In this document: positions 5,933 through 57,225 of the stretch, piece after piece
Layout: each line of letters opens with the position of its first letter
Position numbering within the stretch: the first letter of the stretch is position 1
Program-made: the position numbers and the translations under genes
Assembly: GCA_944388935.1 (NCBI GenBank)
Contig: CALXKK010000005.1
Location: 6,383-70,382, forward strand
DNA length: 64,000 nucleotides
Direction: 5' to 3'
DNA from: an uncultured Clostridia bacterium
Lineage (GTDB): Bacteria > Bacillota > Clostridia > TANB77 > CAG-508
Notes under the pieces: generated by a model
Databases searched by the model: none
Told to the model about the DNA's origin: nothing
Seen by the model: the letters and a program-made list of their open reading frames with translations, nothing else

Positions 5933-6015
5933 GCCGATGTGGCGGAATTGGCAGACGCACCAGACTCAAAATCTGGCGGGAAACCATGTGGGTTCGAGTC
6001 CCACCATCGGTACCA
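5933..6015 (+). tRNA. tRNA-Leu, anticodon CAA, class II with long variable arm and encoded CCA
   Basis: Acceptor stem GCCGATG/CATCGGT. Anticodon stem CCAGA/TCTGG with loop CTCAAAA. T-arm GTGGG-TTCGAGT-CCCAC. Long variable arm and 3' CCA present. Confidence 0.85.
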
Positions 6016-11407: not shown

Positions 11408-11769
11408 TGAAGAAGAGTACACAAAGAAAAATCTGGGCATGGTCGATGAGACTAGGAAATAGGTGCGGTTGCCATCAAAGAGAAGATAGAAGTTTTAAGA
11501 TAGGTGAATTTCAATTTCCTATTTGTAGTAGATGTACAGGCATATTATTGGGTCAAATTTTATCAATAATATTAATTCTTTTAAAAGTTAATATTCCCAT
11601 ATATTTAGATTTTATATTTTTAGCAATAATGTTTTTAGATTGGTATATTCAATTCAAAAAAATAAGGGAATCTACTAACCTAAGAAGGCTAGTAACTGGA
11701 ACTTTAGCAGGAATTGCGCAAATAAATATTATATATCAAATAATAATGTTCATAATAAAATTAATTTAA
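11407..11769 (+). CDS. DUF2085-family membrane protein with N-terminal Cys cluster
   Basis: CGCHQ...CSRC followed by 3 TM helices. Translationally coupled to the upstream zinc-ribbon gene. Confidence 0.6.
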   Translation: MKKSTQRKIWAWSMRLGNRCGCHQREDRSFKIGEFQFPICSRCTGILLGQILSIILILLKVNIPIYLDFIFLAIMFLDWYIQFKKIRESTNLRRLVTGTLAGIAQINIIYQIIMFIIKLI

Positions 11770-11834
11770 GTATTGAAAAAAATATAAATTAGGGATAAAA
11801 TAACAGGGAAAAAACAGAAGAAAGGTGGATTACA

Positions 11835-12545
11835 ATGGAATTTCATGCAAATAAAGGAAAAAATGTAGAAATTGAAGTTAATGGAGAAGTATATTTAAGA
11901 CACGCAATTAAAACGAGATTTGTAAAACAAGGAGATAGTTATATAGATTTATTTAAAGAATATGTTTCACCAATATATCAAGAAGGAGATATAGTTTCTA
12001 GTAGTGAAAAAATTATAGCTCTTTGTCAAAATAGAGTATTAAAAAGAGAAGATATAAAAGTAGGATTTTGGGCAAAGTTTTTATCTAAATTTGCACATAA
12101 AACTACTGCAGGAGTTGGTGTTGGAGAGCCTATAAAAATGCAATTTGCTATTAATCAAGTTGGTCTATTAAAAGTATTATGGGCAAGTTTAGCAAGTGCT
12201 GTTACAAAATTGTTCGGTAAAAAGGGTGTATTTTATGAGATTGTAGGACAAGAAGTAAGTGGATTAGATGGTTTCTATGATCACGTATGGAAAGAATATG
12301 GAGATATAGGAATATTATTACCAGAAAATCCAACAAAAGTATGTAACGAAATACATGACAAATTAGGAATTTCTTGTATGATAGTAGATGCTAACGATTT
12401 AGGTCAAGAAGTTATTGGACATTCTGATGATATTAAATTAACAGAAGAGGAATTAAAAGGATTAATAAAAGATAACCCTACAGGACAAGGACAAGAACAA
12501 ACACCATTAATATTAATAAGAAAAAAATCAGCAAATAAAGAATAA
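11835..12545 (+). CDS. CofE-like (F420-0:gamma-glutamyl ligase family) protein
   Basis: EGDIVSSSEKIIALCQNRVL and PENPTKVCNEIHDKLGISCMIVDANDLG resemble the CofE motifs DGDVLVV.SK.VSKAEGR and PENPD...VIITDTNGR. No terminator separates it from the upstream gene pair. Confidence 0.55.
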   Translation: MEFHANKGKNVEIEVNGEVYLRHAIKTRFVKQGDSYIDLFKEYVSPIYQEGDIVSSSEKIIALCQNRVLKREDIKVGFWAKFLSKFAHKTTAGVGVGEPIKMQFAINQVGLLKVLWASLASAVTKLFGKKGVFYEIVGQEVSGLDGFYDHVWKEYGDIGILLPENPTKVCNEIHDKLGISCMIVDANDLGQEVIGHSDDIKLTEEELKGLIKDNPTGQGQEQTPLILIRKKSANKE

Positions 12546-16991: not shown

Positions 16992-17555
16992 ATGTTATAT
17001 CCAAAATTAGATAATATAAAAAGAAATAATATAATTTTAATTTCATCCATAGCAATATCAATTATAGTAATAGATATTTTATTACTTATTAATCTACTTG
17101 TAGATAAAACAAATCATTGGTCACTACTATGTGTTGCAGGAATAATATATGTATATGGTACAATTATCTATTCAAGAAAAAGAAATGTAAATATAGCTTC
17201 TAATGTATTTGTGCAATGTTTGTTAGTTTCTTTATTAATATTGGCAATAGATTATTTTATAGGATATAGTGGGTGGTCCATAAATATTGCAATTCCAATA
17301 GTAATTATAGTAGCAAATTCCACTCTTATGATTTTAACTATTGTAAGTAGAAAAAGATATATGAGATATGCAATGTACCATGTGCTAACTTTTATATTTA
17401 GTATGATTCAACTTATGTTGTTACTTTTTGGGAAGTTGGACAATAAAGTATTAACGATTGTAGCAAGTGGGATAGCGGGACTTTCTTTAGTCTTAACAAT
17501 TATATTGTGTGGAAGAGCAATGTGGGAAGAAACCAAGAAAAGATTACACATGTGA
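16992..17555 (+). CDS. Small integral membrane protein (4 predicted TM helices), overlapping and co-transcribed with the acyltransferase
   Basis: Hydrophobic segments ILISSIAISIIVIDILLLINLL, LLCVAGIIYVYGTIIY, LLVSLLILAIDYFIGY and VLTIVASGIAGLSLVLTIIL. Start overlaps the upstream stop. Confidence 0.55.
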   Translation: MLYPKLDNIKRNNIILISSIAISIIVIDILLLINLLVDKTNHWSLLCVAGIIYVYGTIIYSRKRNVNIASNVFVQCLLVSLLILAIDYFIGYSGWSINIAIPIVIIVANSTLMILTIVSRKRYMRYAMYHVLTFIFSMIQLMLLLFGKLDNKVLTIVASGIAGLSLVLTIILCGRAMWEETKKRLHM

Positions 17556-17585
17556 ACTTTGGGGACGGACCTTAAAAGTTCAAAT
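17553..17585 (+). repeat. Copy A of a conserved 24-nt element GGGACGGACCTTAAAAGTTCAAAT, embedded in a hairpin TGAACTTT/AAAGTTCA, starting at the stop codon of the upstream gene
   Basis: Identical 24-mer at 55794-55817. Related to the GGGACNGTCC terminal inverted repeats at 22264-22407. Confidence 0.7.
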
Positions 17586-17640
17586 ATTCTGTTAACCTTA
17601 ACGAGTTAATTTTCATAAACTATTATAAGTAGGTGAGTTT

Positions 17641-19062
17641 ATGAAAGTTATTGTTAAGGTTATTTTTTGTATGTACATTATTTCAAATTTACTAATTATA
17701 TTTGGAACAAATATATATGCATTAGAGCCTGCTGGAACAGTTTATGAAGGAATTGATGTTAGCGCTTACCAGGGTGTAATAGATTTTAAACAGGTAAAGG
17801 ATTCTGGAATTGATTTCGTATATATAAAGTCTAGCGAAGGTGAAAATTTAGTTGATGAATATTTTCTTAGAAATTATGAACAAGCAAGAGCAAATGGTTT
17901 AAATATTGGGTTTTATCATTATGTTGATGCTAGGACTACAGAAGAGGCAATTGCTGAAGCTGAACATTTTGCAAATACAATTGCTGGAACTGTGCCAACG
18001 TGTAAACTTGCAATGGATTTCGAAAGTTTTGGTAATTTATCCAATAGTGAGGTAAATGAAATTTCTAGGGTGTTTTTAGAAAGGGTTCGTGAGCTTACAA
18101 ATAAAGAGATGATTATTTATAGTAATACTTATTCTGCACAAACAGTTTTTAGCCAAGAGCTTGCAAATGAATATCCTTTGTGGGTAGCACAGTACTATGT
18201 AGAAAATCCATCAGACAATGGAAAATGGCAAACTTGGGAAGGTTTTCAATATACAGATAGAGGAGAAGTTCCAGGCATTAATGGCTATGTTGATAGGGAT
18301 AAATTTACAAGTGAAATATTATTGGATAGTCAAGAGGAAATACCAAATAATAACGAGGATAATGAAATTGTGGACGAAGAAAATAATGATTCAAATTACA
18401 TAAGATATACAATTCAAAGAGGTGATACATTAACTTCAATAGCTAGAAGATACAATACTACTGTTGATGAACTTGCAAGGTTAAATAATATACAAAATCC
18501 AAATAGAATTTATGCTGGTGAGACATTATTAATTCCTACAAAGAATAATTCTGTAAGTTCAGGAAGTGATGATAAAAACAATACAATATATATTGTAAGA
18601 AAAGGGGATACTTTATATGGCATTGCAAAGAGATTTAATACAACAGTAAGTAATATTGTAAATAATAACAATATTGTAAATCCAAATTTAATATATCCAG
18701 GTCAAAGATTAATTATAGCCAAAAGTACAGCTAATATTTCTACAAAATATATTACTTATACTGTAAAAAGAGGAGATAGTTTATGGAAAATTGCAAATAA
18801 ATTTAATACAACGGTAAATGAATTAGCATATATAAATGGAATAAGAAATGTAAATAGAATATATATTAACCAGAAAATAAGGATTCCAGTAAATATTGGG
18901 TTAGGAGAACATGATTCCGGACATTGCATATATACAGTTGTAAGGGGTGATACTTTGTGGTCAATAGCTAGAAGATTTGGAAAAACAGTAAATGAAATAG
19001 CAATGTTAAATCGTATACAGAATATAAATTATATCTATGTTGGACAGAAATTAAGAATATAA
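17641..19062 (+). CDS. Secreted GH25 muramidase (lysozyme) with multiple C-terminal LysM domains
   Basis: [31 protein letters not shown]...GFYHY is the GH25 catalytic region. LysM repeats [77 protein letters not shown] and [27 protein letters not shown]. Signal peptide present. Confidence 0.85.
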
Positions 19063-19899: not shown

Positions 19900-20036
19900 A
19901 AAATGCTACCAAATTGGTAGCTTTTTCTATTTGTAAAAAAAACAGAGATTTTAAGAAACGTACTTAAATCCCTGTTTACAATATCATAAATCTGTTATAT
20001 AATAAGGCCAAATTGAAACAAGAAAGGGAGATATAA

Positions 20037-21540: not shown

Positions 21541-22266
21541 ATGTTTTATTTTCCAGGAGGAAGTAGCTATTTATATATAATATTATTAATTATGGTAATT
21601 ACTAATATTATGACTGGGGGAGTAAGTTTATTAGGCATACTATTGAGTTTGCCGGGAGTTTTAATTGCTATAACTTTTCACGAATATGCGCATGCTTTAG
21701 CAGCGGTAAAATTAGGTGATGAAACTCCTAGAATGCAAGGAAGACTTAGCCTAAATCCTTTATCACATTTAGATCCAATTGGTATTATAATGCTTATATT
21801 TGCACATATTGGTTGGGGTAAACCTGTAGAGATAAATCCTAGAAATTTTAAAGGAAGAATATCTACTACTGCTGCTGAGGCGATAGTCTCAATAGCGGGA
21901 CCACTTATGAATTTTATATTGGCAATTGTATTTTCTATAATACTGGCAGCGCTTACAAAATTCGTTCCAGCCATATGGGCTACAGCTCAGGGAGTAATAG
22001 CAACAATCTTAGCAGATATTATTATTGTTAATATAGGATTGGGAGTATTTAATTTAATACCATTACCACCATTAGATGGATCAAAAGTATTAGCATATTT
22101 TTTACCAGTAAATGCAAGAAGATGGTTTTATGAACATGAAAATATATTTTATATAGCATTTATAATAATTTGGCTAACGCCAATTGCATCAAGAATCACT
22201 TCACCAATAATAAATGGAATATTACAATTCTTCTTAAATATAAGTTTTAAGATATTTGGATTATAG
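21541..22266 (+). CDS. Site-2 protease family (peptidase M50) membrane metalloprotease
   Basis: HEYAHAL (HExxH) motif in a TM segment. Polytopic membrane protein. Confidence 0.8.
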   Translation: MFYFPGGSSYLYIILLIMVITNIMTGGVSLLGILLSLPGVLIAITFHEYAHALAAVKLGDETPRMQGRLSLNPLSHLDPIGIIMLIFAHIGWGKPVEINPRNFKGRISTTAAEAIVSIAGPLMNFILAIVFSIILAALTKFVPAIWATAQGVIATILADIIIVNIGLGVFNLIPLPPLDGSKVLAYFLPVNARRWFYEHENIFYIAFIIIWLTPIASRITSPIINGILQFFLNISFKIFGL

Positions 22267-22407
22267 GGATTGGGGGACTGTCCAAAAATCCCGGTTTTAT
22301 CCGGGATTTTTGGGCAGTCCTTTTCTGTGTACTTAATATTTTTTGTTGTGTAAGGACTGCTCTTTTTTCCATAAACAGGGAAAAAAGGACCGTCCCTGAA
22401 TCCCTAC
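22264..22407. mobile_element. MITE-like 144-bp element with about 20-bp terminal inverted repeats (TAGGGATTGGGGGACTGTCC / GGACCGTCCCTGAATCCCTA) and internal near-perfect 20-bp hairpin
   Basis: Left end 22264-22283. Right end 22387-22407, whose reverse complement reads TAGGGATTCAGGGACGGTCC. Internal hairpin 22275-22320 (GGACTGTCCAAAAATCCCGG / CCGGGATTTTTGGGCAGTCC) followed by a T-run also serves as the protease-gene terminator. Second internal hairpin 22354-22395. Confidence 0.5.
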
Positions 22408-47110: not shown

Positions 47111-47399
47111 ACATATACCTCCCTAAATAACACTCTATGAAAAGTATATGTAAAAAGGGGCTTTTCTGTGCCTGGACCATTGAAATTTAAATATTTACAC
47201 ATAATTACTATAATTTTATCATAAAATTTAAATAATTACAAATAATAAAGTTATATAAACGAATTTAAATAAATAGCATATAATTAAGTATGAACGAGAT
47301 AAACTTAAAAAAACACAAAAAATGCACAAAATTGATATTGAAATAAAATTAATTATGTGTTAATATACTTATAAATTAAATAAACGACAAACAAAAACT

Positions 47400-47600
47400 T
47401 CCCTGCATAGTGCGTGTAGACTGGAATTTTAGAACCAACAAATTTTAAAAGGGAGTCCGCCTTTAGGTGTGGCGTGCAAGCTTACACTTTAATTAGTAGT
47501 AAGAAGCCCAGGAGCATTTAACAAGACACCCACCTACGCGAGTAGGCTCTTAAAATTTCTAAACATCTTACGGCTAAGGCGGGGTAAGTTTTTTTATATG
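47400..47600 (+). ncRNA. Candidate structured non-coding RNA (GC-rich, about 45-50% GC against 28% background), family unassigned
   Basis: Local GC spike. GNRA hairpin CCTAC-GCGA-GTAGG. Long-range complement CCGCCTT (47463) / AAGGCGG (47582). Ends ...GGCGGGGTAAGTTTTTTT. No ORF with an RBS. Lies directly upstream of prmC. Confidence 0.3.
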
Positions 47601-50604: not shown

Positions 50605-50865
50605 ATGAGTATTACTCAGAATGCAAGATTAGAGCACAAGCAAGATGTGAGAATGGAGCCTCAAGATAGCATAAGTGCAAATAAACTTTTTAACGAATGG
50701 AAGTTAGACGCTATTAAAAATATCGAGACTGATGCTGAAGGTGTTTCAACGGTTATTATACTGTCTTTTAGTAAGGATTACTTACATAAGGTGTATGATG
50801 ATGCATATGTTCTTAAGAATATGGAAAATGGGAGGACCTTAATTGCCTCCCATTTTCCATGTTAA
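50605..50865 (+). CDS. Hypothetical small protein (86 aa) between hemW and hrcA; last 14 codons encode a perfect 13-bp hairpin
   Basis: AAAGGGGA RBS before ATG 50605. 3' end GGAAAATGGGAGG-accttaattg-CCTCCCATTTTCC (50821-50858) lies inside the CDS, with no T-run after it. Confidence 0.4.
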   Translation: MSITQNARLEHKQDVRMEPQDSISANKLFNEWKLDAIKNIETDAEGVSTVIILSFSKDYLHKVYDDAYVLKNMENGRTLIASHFPC

Positions 50866-50943: not shown

Positions 50944-50970
50944 TTAGCAATCGAATATTAAGAGTGCTAA
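50944..50970 (+). promoter_or_regulatory. CIRCE operator (HrcA binding site), TTAGCAATC-N9-GAGTGCTAA
   Basis: Matches the CIRCE consensus TTAGCACTC-N9-GAGTGCTAA with one mismatch in the left arm. Lies between the promoter and hrcA. Confidence 0.8.
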
Positions 50971-54629: not shown

Positions 54630-55784
54630 ATGGCAGAAAAAAGAGATTATTATGAAGTTTTAGGAGTTAATAAAAATGCAACAGATGATGAACTAAAAAA
54701 AGCCTATAGAAAATTAGCCAAAAAATATCATCCTGATGCAAATCCAAATAATAGAAAAGAAGCAGAAGAAAAATTTAAAGAATTAAATGAAGCATACGAA
54801 ACTCTTTCTGATCCACAAAAAAGAAAAATGTATGATCAATTTGGCTTTAATGGTCCACAAGGATTCGGAGGCCAAGGTGCAGGTCAAGGAGGATATTATT
54901 CTTACAGTACTAATGGATTTGATGGATTTGGTAATTTTGGAGATTTTGGCGATATATTTAGTTCATTCTTTTCTGGATTTGGTGGTTCTTCAGGCAGAAG
55001 TAATAGGAATGGACCTAAAAGAGGTAGAGATTTAAGACATGATATAGAGATTACTTTTGAAGAAGCATATTCAGGCATTAAGAAAGAATTCTTTATAAAT
55101 AGAAATGAAAAATGTACAACTTGTAATGGAACAGGTGCAAAACCAGGAACAAGTCCAATAACATGTCCTAATTGCCATGGAACAGGTCAAGTTACACAAG
55201 TTCAAAATACAATTTTAGGACAAATGCAAACTACTAGAACTTGTTCTGAATGTCATGGAACTGGTCAAATTATAAAAGAACCATGTTCAACATGTAGAGG
55301 AAAAGGAACTGTAAGAAAACAAGCCAAAGTTACAATAAATATTCCAGCAGGAATAGACGATAACCAAACTCTAATCTTAAAGAAAGAAGGAGAGCCAGGT
55401 GAAAGAGGCGGAGAAAACGGAGATATTTATGTAACAGTACATCTAAAGAGACACAGTATCTTTACAAGGGATGGAAATAATGTGTTATGCAATATTCCTA
55501 TCACAATGACACAGGCAACACTTGGTGCAGAATTAGAAATCCCAATGGTAGATGGCGAAAAAGTTAAATATAAAATACCAGAAGGAACACAAACAGGAAC
55601 AAGATTTAATATACGTAATAAAGGATTTAAATCTTTAAACGGAAATTGGCAAGGAGATTACATCTTTACAGTTAATGTACAAACTCCAAAGAAATTAACA
55701 AAAGAACAAAGAGACTTATTTACACAATTAGCAAAAACTATGAACGAGCAACCTCCAGTAAAGAAAAGAGGTTTATTTGGATAG
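54630..55784 (+). CDS. dnaJ: Molecular chaperone DnaJ (Hsp40), type I with Gly/Phe-rich region and four CxxCxGxG repeats
   Basis: J-domain HPD motif (KYHPDAN). Zinc motifs [24 protein letters not shown] and CSTCRGKG. Confidence 0.95.
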
Positions 55785-55817
55785 TGAACACGAGGGACGG
55801 ACCTTAAAAGTTCAAAT
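55785..55817 (+). repeat. Copy B of the conserved 24-nt element GGGACGGACCTTAAAAGTTCAAAT, beginning 1 nt after the dnaJ stop codon
   Basis: Exact 24-nt identity with 17562-17585. Local stem TGAAC/GTTCA. Confidence 0.7.
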
Positions 55818-55955
55818 TTTATGTTTACTCTTTGGATTTTTAAGGTTCCTAATGTTCAAAACAGTCAGATGAATACATAAATCATTTGGCTGTTTTTGTT
55901 TTTAAAACTATAGCATTATATATATTTGTGTTAATGAATGAAGGAGAATGATAAA

Positions 55956-56510
55956 ATGATATATATAGTTAGACATGGACAAACGGATTGGAATGTGATA
56001 GGAAGAAACCAAGGAAGAACTGATATTGAGTTAAATGAAACCGGTATTAAACAAGCTGAAGAAACAGCAAAAAAATTAAATGGAAAAAAATTTGATTTTG
56101 TTTTTTCAAGTCCTTTAAAGCGTGCCTATAAAACTGCTCAAATAATTTGTAATAATGATAATATAATTATAGATGAAAGATTGATTGAAAGATGCAATGG
56201 CGATTTAGAAGGTAGATTGAAATCAGAATATAATGGATTGGTAAATTTTGCAGATCCTAATGAAAATAGATATGGCATTGAGCCTTTACCAATTTTTAGA
56301 AGAAGAATAACAGATTTTTTTGCCGATATATTAAAAAAATATCCTGGAAAAGATATCCTTATTGTTACACATGCAGGGATAAGTATTTATGCTAAATGCT
56401 ATTTTGAAGGAGAGCCAAGAGATGGTAATTATAGTAAATACAAATTGAAAAATTGTGAGATTTTACAATATCCAAATGATTTAAAGCATAATAAATTTTA
56501 TGAAATATAA
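55956..56510 (+). CDS. Histidine phosphatase family protein (phosphoglycerate mutase-like)
   Basis: RHGQTDWN catalytic motif. GAAGGAGAA RBS before ATG 55956. Confidence 0.8.
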   Translation: MIYIVRHGQTDWNVIGRNQGRTDIELNETGIKQAEETAKKLNGKKFDFVFSSPLKRAYKTAQIICNNDNIIIDERLIERCNGDLEGRLKSEYNGLVNFADPNENRYGIEPLPIFRRRITDFFADILKKYPGKDILIVTHAGISIYAKCYFEGEPRDGNYSKYKLKNCEILQYPNDLKHNKFYEI

Positions 56511-56661
56511 TAATTAGTTTATCATTGAAAATTATGTAAATCGGAGATATAATATTTTTGTTTCTATTTGAAATGCTTTCTACTTATTTGTAGAAGGAAG
56601 GAGGCTTTTGAGCTTAGACAAGATATATAACATCGTCGGCAAAAAAACGAAAGGGACAGAG

Positions 56662-57045
56662 ATGTCAAAGAAGACAAGCAATAAAAGGTTCATTAAATTT
56701 TTCTTGATATTGGGCATTATAGTTTTTTTTATAGTTAATTGGAAGCTGTGTAATGGTAATTTTGAGCAATTTTGCTCTAATATGACAACAGCTTTAGGGG
56801 TATTAGGAGCTTGTACGTTATTGCTTATTTATGTAATTTGTCCATACTTGTGGATAATACTGATTCCTTTAGCTTTGTGCTTGTTTGATAAAAATGCACG
56901 CCCGTATGCTTTTGCACTTATTATAGTGGCAATGATTTTTGTGGCTTTTGGATTAATATTTTTTCCAAATAGCAAATCAGACGACGACAAGGAAGAAGAT
57001 GATGCTCAAAAGTCAAATGCTCAAGAATCTTCAAATGAGCAATAA
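56662..57045 (+). CDS. Hypothetical membrane protein with acidic C-terminal tail
   Basis: Three hydrophobic helices then a DDDKEEDDAQ tail. ATG 56662 after an AAAGGGA RBS. Followed by the terminator GGCGGAGGTTCTCACAT/ATGTGAGGACCTCCGTC. Confidence 0.5.
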   Translation: MSKKTSNKRFIKFFLILGIIVFFIVNWKLCNGNFEQFCSNMTTALGVLGACTLLLIYVICPYLWIILIPLALCLFDKNARPYAFALIIVAMIFVAFGLIFFPNSKSDDDKEEDDAQKSNAQESSNEQ

Positions 57046-57225
57046 AAGAATTAATGGCGGAGGTTCTCACATTATGTGAGGACCTCCGTCATTTTGCATA
57101 AAAAATATAGATTTTTCGGACCATCTCCAAATCCCTAAAAATCCATAAAATTTTATTTTACATATAAGTATAATGTATGATATAATGCAACGTAAGAAAG
57201 CATAAATTAATATAGGTGATAATAA

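Follow-up and report, generated by a model that had tools for sequence, protein, structure and literature searches.

A 24-nucleotide sequence shared by two stop-codon regions of an uncultured gut Clostridia genome as the probable core of a dispersed palindromic repeat

A 64-kb stretch of contig CALXKK010000005.1, from an uncultured Clostridia bacterium, contains the same 24-nucleotide sequence, GGGACGGACCTTAAAAGTTCAAAT, at the ends of two unrelated genes located 38 kb apart. The whole 64-kb stretch is referred to here as the window. One copy is at the stop codon of a four-transmembrane gene (site 1) and the other follows the stop codon of dnaJ (site 2). This raises the question of whether the shared sequence is the end of a mobile element, a signal in the transcript, or a repeat of another kind. 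The original prediction considered the copies to be solo ends or miniature copies of a mobile family, or a protein-binding motif of the 3' untranslated region. The analysis presented here indicates that the 24-mer probably forms the conserved center of a single unit, a hairpin of roughly 30-45 nucleotides, in a dispersed and non-coding repeat family that resembles the repetitive extragenic palindromic (REP) sequences and the REPINs. The feature is real and non-random, and in its general nature, a small dispersed palindromic repeat, it is ordinary. What looks unusual is that the loop is conserved, that units lie close against stop codons, and that the copy after dnaJ appears to be under selection. 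Within the window itself, the 24-nucleotide identity marks no mobile island, terminator, or regulon.

The 24-mer and the repeat unit

The 24-mer has exactly two copies in the window (17562-17585 and 55794-55817), both on the + strand. No third copy was found in the window with up to three mismatches allowed, and the sequence did not arise by chance in any of 100 shuffles. The likeness extends beyond the 24-mer, as positions 17552-17596 and 55784-55828 form a 45-nucleotide repeat (D13) with 84% identity. The DUF6320 four-transmembrane gene at site 1 ends with the TGA at 17553-17555, which also supplies the first three bases of the 5' stem. The Pfam match to DUF6320 extends to the last profile position, and homologs share the C-terminus of the protein (...KKRLHM). 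At site 2, TGAAC comes directly after the dnaJ stop codon (TAG, 55782-55784). GGGACGGACC sits within the loop of a TGAAC...GTTCA stem at both sites. The exact identity, the two unrelated stop codons, and the stem-loop context had all been described in the original prediction and were confirmed.

The site 1 unit (17553-17582, + strand) is of the TGAAC type and is composed of a perfect 8-bp stem, TGAACTTT/AAAGTTCA, and the loop GGGGACGGACCTTA. It folds with -10.5 kcal/mol (z = -2.55) and matches the covariance model (CM) of the family, CM R1, with 44.1 bits (E = 3.9e-9). It is followed by the tail AATATTCTGTTAAC (17583-17596, + strand), which is conserved in D13 and in the alignment with loci L101-L104 of related genomes and matches the central loop of a doublet. 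No right arm is present at site 1 in the window.

The site 2 unit (55785-55814, + strand; CM R1 42.7 bits, E = 9.6e-9) is also of the TGAAC type, begins one base past the dnaJ TAG, has a 5-bp stem, and is the left arm of an inverted doublet. Next to it are the tail and central loop AATTTTATGTTTACTC (55815-55830, + strand), which form the loop of a long hairpin and are conserved with site 1 and with the related locus L115. The inverted right arm, TTTGGATTTTTAAGGTTCCTAATGTTCA (55831-55858, - strand), was assigned from the minimum-free-energy fold. It is missing four nucleotides of the core and pairs to the left arm via two G-U wobbles. Folding of 55777-55910 gives the long hairpin at 55785-55858, with -41.6 kcal/mol for the whole stretch (z = -5.9). 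The intrinsic terminator of dnaJ lies outside the repeat at 55859-55903 (+ strand) and is composed, in the fold, of a 14-bp stem and a 9-nucleotide loop, followed by TTGTTTTT. A simple scan missed this terminator because its loop exceeds 8 nucleotides; the orthologous hairpin in L115 shows compensatory changes. The site 2 doublet, in which the right arm has decayed, lies between the dnaJ stop codon and the dnaJ terminator. No T-run follows 17582 or 55814 and the terminator scan flags neither hairpin, in agreement with the earlier view that the element is not a canonical terminator.

The shorter sequence GGGACNGNCC has four occurrences in the window against 0.04 expected. The two outside the 24-mers are the ends of an element at 22264-22407, GGGACTGTCC on the + strand and GGGACGGTCC on the - strand. 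The suggestion that the core is one mismatch from the end of this element was correct, and both belong to the same family: in L112-L114 the TGAAC unit at dnaJ carries GGGACGGTCC instead of GGGACGGACC.

The loci of relatives, numbered here with the prefix L, were gathered through homologs of LysS, DnaJ, and DUF6320. When units are aligned, their order is a 5' stem, two to four nucleotides, GGGAC[G/T]G[A/T]CC, T(T)AAAA, and a 3' stem, for a total of approximately 30 nucleotides. It can be written as the GGGATTNNGGGACGGTCC unit. The stem is 5-9 bp and is either TGAAC(TT)/(AA)GTTCA or GGGATT/AATCCC. The two types differ in three base pairs, all three of which are compensated. Units are present as singlets, as inverted doublets that fold into hairpins of 65-80 nucleotides, and as tandem clusters. 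Inverted doublets were identified at 55785-55858 of the window, at 1290-1355 of L015, and at site 1 of L101, and tandem units in L099 and L112. The L015 doublet is in the dnaK-dnaJ spacer and consists of the inverted units AGGGATTAGGGGACGGTCCTAAAAATCCCT and AGGGATTTTTAGGACCGTCCCTTAATCCCG separated by AAAAGC. The same spacer has a single unit in L013 and an unrelated hairpin in the window. Units are located at dnaJ or ruvC in L109, L110, L112, and L115. A scan of JGI metagenomes with GGGATTNNGGGACKGTCCWAAAAATCCC gave nine loci representing three distinct genomic sites, all in DNA of 25-29% GC.

The association of the core with a flanking stem is not general to AT-rich sequence. Of the 224 GGGAC occurrences in 692 kb of AT-rich loci, 43 are flanked by a perfect stem of 6 bp or more. 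The same test gave 0-12 of 170-656 occurrences for eight control pentamers, and 24 of 129 for GACGG, which overlaps the core. On inspection, nearly all GGGACGG heptamers in these loci are inside hairpins with flanking stems. CM R1, built from seven units, gave 27 matches at E<=10 in 361 kb of DNA from the clade, of which 21 were below E = 0.1. Across 1.15 Mb of unrelated dnaJ loci it gave two matches, both marginal (E>5). The CM alignment was itself fitted to the structure, and two subfamilies make up most of it. On this alignment, 88.8% of cells pair compared with 73.4% after shuffling, and double-change cells number 30 compared with 11.7; none of 500 shuffles reached either value. Hairpins with other stems around a GGGACGG loop (L011:16868-16903, L105:16624-16656, and L011:8056) are marginal, with E 2.7-9.9 when the CM filters are off. 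Those in L011 and L105 are possible relatives of the family.

The family was not recognized in other collections. Neither site matched an Rfam family, whether at the gathering threshold or with E<=5 allowed. Neither unit type was found in IMG/VR, and the 79-nucleotide doublet had no meaningful match among phages and plasmids. The exact 21-mer GGGACGGACCTTAAAAGTTCA was not found in 185,579 species-representative genomes or in the JGI metagenomes, and a full-text literature search with the core 10-mers returned only primers and unrelated sequences.

Position, conservation, and history of the copies

Sense units are concentrated at stop codons. A start between -8 and +8 nucleotides from the end of the stop codon was seen for eight of 10 independent insertions on the sense strand, with 1.7 expected (P ~6e-6). 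The test was restricted to insertions whose GGGAC strand has the same sense as the upstream gene, and its null model placed units uniformly along the spacer. The units of L098 and L099 contain the stop codon itself (AGG-GAT-TAA and AGG-GAT-TAG), and both proteins therefore end in RD. A tally of units gives 13 in sense and five antisense solo units (L092, L110:7991-8020, and L011:8056 among the latter), with three more antisense units that are doublet partners. The association with gene ends anticipated by the original prediction is present. A strand bias relative to the adjacent genes is present as well, as orientation is biased toward sense, although it is not strict.

The dnaJ copy is more conserved than its surroundings. 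Between the window and L115, the fourfold-degenerate sites of dnaJ are 67% identical and the last 50 nucleotides of the gene match at 45 of 50 positions, whereas the unit with its tail matches at 46 of 47. A match of 46/47 has a probability of 1.6e-7 if p = 0.67, of 2e-5 if p = 0.75, and of 0.012 under the coding-sequence rate. In L115-L118 this site keeps TGAACACGAGGGACGGACCTTAAA-GTTCAAATTTTATGTTTAC, and the right arm and terminator have diverged. Comparison of the sequences points to constraint on at least the dnaJ copy, which is conserved far beyond neutral expectation. This constraint is not general, because other copies decay. Across lineages, moreover, the spacer is characteristic of the site (ACGA at dnaJ, TTTG/TTTA at site 1), so that neither recent transposition nor long-tract gene conversion explains why the two window copies are identical.

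The history of site 1 can be followed in relatives of increasing distance. L100 (LysS 98% identical) is the same as the window at this site. L101-L104 (LysS 95%) have a full doublet, in which the left arm is homologous to that of the window and approximately 27% diverged, mostly by G>A and C>T changes, and the inverted right arm TTGAACTTTTAGGTCCGTCCCTAAAGTTCAC is intact. The window is without the 34 nucleotides (ATTTTGAACTTTTAGGTCCGTCCCTAAAGTTCAC) that L101-L104 have between GTTAAC and CTTAAC. The outgroup L121/L122 (DUF6320 88%) has a different hairpin at this position and no TGAAC unit. Since the L101 lineage holds the homologous arm and the outgroup does not, the site 1 element dates to the ancestor of the window and L101. 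The description of the copies as solo ends or miniature copies was close in this respect: site 1 has one unit where the sister lineage has a doublet, and site 2 has a doublet with a decayed arm. The idea that the unit is simply a terminal inverted repeat of a transposase-type MITE was not supported, as the unit is a hairpin complete in itself, with a conserved loop and a co-varying stem.

A strain of the L101 lineage, L119, carries two transitions in the right-arm core at site 1 (L119:7617-7646), which change GGGACGGACC to GAGATGGACC on the unit strand. These are the sole differences from L101 in the spacer of approximately 140 nucleotides between the DUF6320 and GH25 genes. The repeat core may be a local mutational hot spot, or these changes may be due to chance.

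At the dnaJ site, L112-L114 keep a TGAAC unit with the ACGA spacer and have an extra tandem GGGATT unit before it. L110 has a GGGATT-type unit at this site, and L109, with the same DnaJ protein as L110, has none. At the M50 peptidase gene, where the 22264-22407 element of the window begins, L105-L108 (LysS 91%) have a plain terminator, and no repeat unit was found in 59 kb of these loci. In the ruvC-holA spacer, L109 has a unit 8 nucleotides past the ruvC stop codon, and the spacer of the window is empty. Occupancy of intergenic sites by units differs between related lineages, and both window insertions are older than a lineage split.

The same spacer holds a different arrangement in two other loci. 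At L112:8375-8500 and L115:17330-17440, the last approximately 18 nucleotides of ruvC with the stop codon (CAATTTAAAYTATAAAGAA) are directly duplicated around an insert of 35-50 nucleotides that has its own hairpin. The window has CAATTTAAAYTATAAAGAA once and lacks the insert. A separate kind of small insertion, with a long target duplication, may be responsible.

Known elements and competing explanations

To our knowledge, small palindromic repeats are well described in Proteobacteria and hardly at all in Clostridia. REPs are defined as palindromes of 20-40 bp with an unpaired GTAG or CGTC at one end, present in tens to thousands of copies that are mostly extragenic (PMC3733652). As with REPs and REPINs (PMC3733652, PMC3116915, PMC3337134), the family consists of extragenic palindromes of approximately 30 nucleotides that form singlets, inverted doublets, and clusters, show lineage-specific occupancy and vertical persistence, and have no coding capacity. 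The 30-nucleotide unit with its 5-9-bp stem forms inverted dimers, in line with the head-to-head or tail-to-tail dimers of REPs, and the site 1 singlet opposite the doublet of a relative fits the idea that singlets are remnants of doublets. The family differs from REPs in several respects. The unit has no GTAG, and CGTC is present only on the complementary strand inside the loop (GGTCCGTCCC) rather than at a terminus. Its conserved part is the loop, which is long (12-20 nucleotides), and its variable part is the stem; REPs show the opposite, with a conserved stem and tag and a variable loop. The family is carried by an AT-rich lineage of Clostridia, and a 2013 survey lists no Firmicutes. By analogy, the unit would work like a REP, and no membership in the tagged REP superfamilies is claimed.

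In E. coli, approximately half of the REPs are less than 16 nucleotides from a stop codon, and REPs in this position reduce the translation of the gene before them (Liang, Rudd and Deutscher 2015, as summarized in PMC12306157). The family described here likewise places a stable repeat hairpin within the footprint of the terminating ribosome, with eight of 10 sense units within 8 nucleotides of the stop, and an effect on expression would follow by analogy only. In three cases the stop codon is in the unit, as the TGA of TGAAC or the TAA/TAG of GGGAT-TAR-GGGAC. The passages of PMC12306157 on REPs do not describe a stop codon as part of the repeat.

A mechanism of the following kind is proposed. 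The repeat would spread non-autonomously in the manner of REPs and REPINs, possibly through single-stranded hairpin DNA recognized by a putative trans-acting enzyme. Once inserted, the unit would be transcribed within the upstream mRNA, where the terminating ribosome would have to melt a stable hairpin. Following the E. coli REPs, the hairpin would then most plausibly serve as a barrier to 3' exonucleases, as a translation-termination brake on the upstream cistron, or as both. Some copies, including that of dnaJ, may have been retained by selection for such an effect as others decayed.

Several observations weigh against the REP-like interpretation. No transposase was found in Pfam tables next to units, in the window, or in approximately 400 kb of related loci. 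The Y1 HUH transposase RAYT (PF01797), the partner in REPIN-RAYT systems, was likewise not found in the window or these loci, which are a small share of any genome examined. Both window copies are old and conserved, and therefore nothing shows recent mobility. Only one candidate for a target-site duplication was identified (AGGAA at L109), and none is consistent. Genome-wide copy number is an extrapolation, because only approximately seven unit equivalents are present in the 64 kb. Solid statistical support exists for two stem types only, with marginal CM scores for the hairpins of L011 and L105, and the covariation amounts to approximately one event over three pairs. From the antisense solo copies and the core transitions of L119 it follows that any RNA-level function is neither universal nor orientation-strict.

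The alternative that survives best, although we consider it unlikely, is a cis-acting RNA or single-stranded DNA signal. Here the loop GGGACGG(A/T)CC would be presented to a binding protein at the 3' ends of coding sequences for control of mRNA decay, termination, or coupling, and copies would be kept by selection and not by transposition. This fits the conserved loop with co-varying stems and the strong sense-strand, stop-proximal bias. It also fits the dnaJ copy, in which the conserved 46 of 47 positions include the ACGA spacer and argue against gene conversion from other copies, and the site 1 copy of the window, which stayed at consensus as its L101 ortholog diverged. Where pairing in the long hairpins is imperfect, the sense strand mostly shows G-U (eight, versus two A-C; P = 0.055), an excess that is suggestive of pairing at the RNA level and is not significant. 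Against a signal, the upstream genes are unrelated (dnaK, dnaJ, ruvC, recG, typA, the M50 protease, DUF6320, and a gene for a 2735-aa surface protein), and intact antisense copies and inverted doublets exist. Close relatives gain, lose, or swap the stem type at sites, and decay without visible consequence is seen in the L101 left arm, in the L119 core, and at 19944 and 57107 of the window. The lack of an Rfam family match also counts against it. For the protein-binding motif of the 3' untranslated region in the original prediction, the conservation of the dnaJ copy likewise gives some support, and antisense copies, decayed copies, and the unrelated upstream genes weaken it.

A related and more doubtful proposal is that the unit is a hairpin signal defined by the loop GGGACGG[A/T]CC and not by the stem, read on single-stranded nucleic acid by a putative trans-acting factor. 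This factor could be a mobilizing enzyme of the HUH-origin style or an RNA-binding protein acting at translation termination. The latter would explain units on or within 8 nucleotides of stop codons, the stop codons supplied by units, and the conservation at dnaJ. Hairpin origins of HUH endonucleases, such as the nonanucleotide of CRESS-DNA viruses and the double-strand origin (dso) of rolling-circle plasmids, have a conserved loop on a freely varying stem. The likeness of the repeat to these origins is only a lead to how an enzyme acting in trans might recognize it. Unlike them, the copies here are chromosomal, numerous, and intergenic, and no Rep or HUH gene was found.

The transposon explanation treats the copies as solo terminal inverted repeats, or as miniature inverted-repeat transposable elements (MITEs), of an insertion sequence (IS) with a DDE transposase. 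The 24-mer would be a transposase-binding end that moved by cut-and-paste. We regard this as improbable. The element at 22264-22407 is a composite bracketed by two GGGATT-type units, has the ends TAGGGATTGGGGGACTGTCC and, on the opposite strand, TAGGGATTCAGGGACGGTCC, and closes into a multi-branch fold of -73.2 kcal/mol (z = -9.65). Its left unit (22265-22293, + strand; stem GGGATT/AATCCC, CM R1 E = 3.3e-4) starts on the TAG stop codon of the M50 peptidase gene. Its right unit, the T-run variant GGGATTCAGGGACGGTCCTTTTTTCCC (22377-22405, - strand; CM R1 E = 0.035), is decayed in L101-L104. Inverted ends of 20-30 nucleotides on this composite and on the doublets, and the TA flanking it (TA-GGGATT...AATCCC-TA), favor a MITE, as does the insert of approximately 38 nucleotides in the L109 ruvC-holA spacer, with AGGAA on both sides where the empty site of the window has a single AGAAGG. 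Against this, the left unit overlaps the terminator of the M50 gene (22275-22320, + strand), a 20-bp hairpin followed by TTTTCTG that was detected in the terminator scan and is orthologous to a hairpin in L101-L104. The inner half of the composite is this conserved terminator and not transposon cargo.

Correia/NEMIS, RUP, and ERIC elements resemble the family in being small and non-coding with inverted ends, in forming hairpins in transcripts, in lying beside genes, and in their presence/absence polymorphism. They differ in that their terminal repeats match a parent IS and their target duplications are fixed (TA, for example). Neither property is established for the family, and single 30-nucleotide units are below MITE size. 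A single unit, moreover, already forms a full hairpin with a co-varying stem of its own, a feature that ends bound by a transposase would not require. The flanks of other copies share no duplication. The sole DDE transposase (L107) has no GGGAC-type sequence nearby. No autonomous IS with unit ends was found in the window, in the gathered loci, which are parts of genomes, or in phage, plasmid, and viral collections. A MITE of the transposase type was accordingly not supported, with neither a parent IS nor a consistent target-site duplication found.

Ordinary terminators or attenuators, made alike by convergent sequence preference in an AT-rich genome, can be given hardly any credence: the 22275-22320 hairpin is terminator-like, T-runs follow units in L013 and L092, and spacers such as dnaK-dnaJ hold some hairpin in every relative, but both focal copies lack a T-run, dnaJ has its own terminator 45 nucleotides further on, several units lie inside operons right upstream of a ribosome-binding site (dnaK-dnaJ, ruvC-holA), and identity over 24-45 nucleotides with a 10-nucleotide core common to both stem types is not convergence.

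Other candidates were rejected. The copies are not the attL and attR sites of a 38-kb island, and no mobile island is bounded by them, because the interval consists of housekeeping genes that are syntenic in relatives and is without a transposase. It includes lysS, the M50 protease gene, tsaD, tig, clpP, clpX, rlmN, a PASTA kinase gene, recG, the 6S RNA gene, and hrcA-grpE-dnaK-dnaJ. A bacterial selenocysteine insertion sequence (SECIS) after the site 1 TGA is excluded by other copies that follow TAG or TAA, by the dnaJ TAG that is at once followed by TGA, and by the conserved KKRLHM C-terminus; a pyrrolysine insertion sequence (PYLIS)-like element after TAG falls on the same grounds. Integron attC sites have the core sites R''/R' (RYYYAAC...GTTRRRY) with cassette genes alongside and an integrase. 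AGTGAAC...GTTCAAA does not fit this consensus, and the flanking genes are syntenic housekeeping genes rather than cassettes. A small open reading frame (ORF) from an ATG in the dnaJ tail is not common to site 1. Likenesses to a CsrA-type GGA loop, a tRNA T-loop (GTTCAAAT), and a CRISPR repeat are only superficial.

If the REP-like interpretation is correct, the family is a lineage marker and also a source of assembly and annotation artifacts, such as repeat-supplied stop codons and RD C-termini. It would provide a natural test, outside E. coli, of whether hairpins in the footprint of the terminating ribosome tune expression. Conservation of the loop and not the stem would point to a mode of recognition unlike that of REP-RAYT systems.

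Other units, host clade, and neighboring features

Two more decayed GGGATT-type units were located in the window with nhmmer, both on the - strand. The first, CAGGGATTTAAGTACGTTTCTTAAAATCTCTG (19944-19973; CM R1 E = 0.056), is between a 236-aa ORF and lysS, in a segment that is missing in L101. The second, TAGGGATTTGGAGATGGTCCGAAAAATC (57107-57136; CM R1 E = 0.84, marginal), is upstream of ispH. In total, the 64 kb contains four good and three decayed units, all extragenic or overlapping a stop codon. Between dnaJ and ispH the window also has a His_Phos_1 phosphatase gene and a 145-aa ORF (55938-57045), with the dnaJ doublet at the left of this segment and the decayed 57107-57136 unit, in antisense, at the right. 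Both genes are absent from the L112 and L115 lineages, where ispH directly follows dnaJ.

Two side observations in other loci concern GGGAC-containing sequences. The hairpin at L011:16868-16903 has a 10-bp stem, TTGAGACAAA/TTTGTCTCAA, and the loop ATGGGGACGGAGCTAA. It lies within the last 15 codons of a 375-aa ORF, 10 nucleotides before the TAA, and may be an intragenic relative of the family. At L013:8950-9000, three tandem copies of GGGACTTTTT are present right after a TAG stop codon and are followed by the GC-rich hairpin GGCACCGTGTGCC. This may be another GGGAC-containing repeat.

The repeat family belongs to a clade of uncultured gut Clostridia of approximately 27% GC, for which the nearest named relatives are Clostridium sp. 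CAG:356 and Candidatus Merdicola. This clade is known only from gut metagenomes. The window is 27.8% GC. Searches with its own DnaJ and M50 proteins returned only contigs identical to it, which come from gut metagenome assemblies of ENA and Logan. The LysS of Clostridium sp. CAG:356 shares 81% identity with that of the window, and for DnaJ the value is 74% with Candidatus Merdicola faecigallinarum (Clostridia incertae sedis at NCBI). The closest representative genomes by DnaJ are metagenome-assembled genomes of uncultured Clostridia with 58-75% identity. GC skew is strongly positive over the whole window (0.21-0.29), and therefore the + strand is the leading strand throughout. AT skew is 0.13-0.26, and nearly all genes are on the + strand. 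Gene content differs from the sister lineage at two further places. L101-L104 and L119 have a ferritin gene between lysS and the M50 peptidase gene (approximately 11616-12056) and a NUDIX gene after the metallophosphatase gene, and both are absent in the window.

A 6S RNA (SsrS) gene is present at 47397-47589 on the + strand (Rfam RF00013, 98 bits), and a tRNA-Leu(CAA) gene at 5933-6015. Just upstream of hrcA is a CIRCE-like operator, TTAGCAATCGAATATTAAGAGTGCTAA (50944-50970, + strand), with one mismatch to the consensus. A strong hairpin with a loop containing GGACCTTAA precedes this operator at 50823-50857. The GH25 lysozyme gene contains four diverged direct repeats of 129 nucleotides (18405-19058), which correspond to its four LysM domains.

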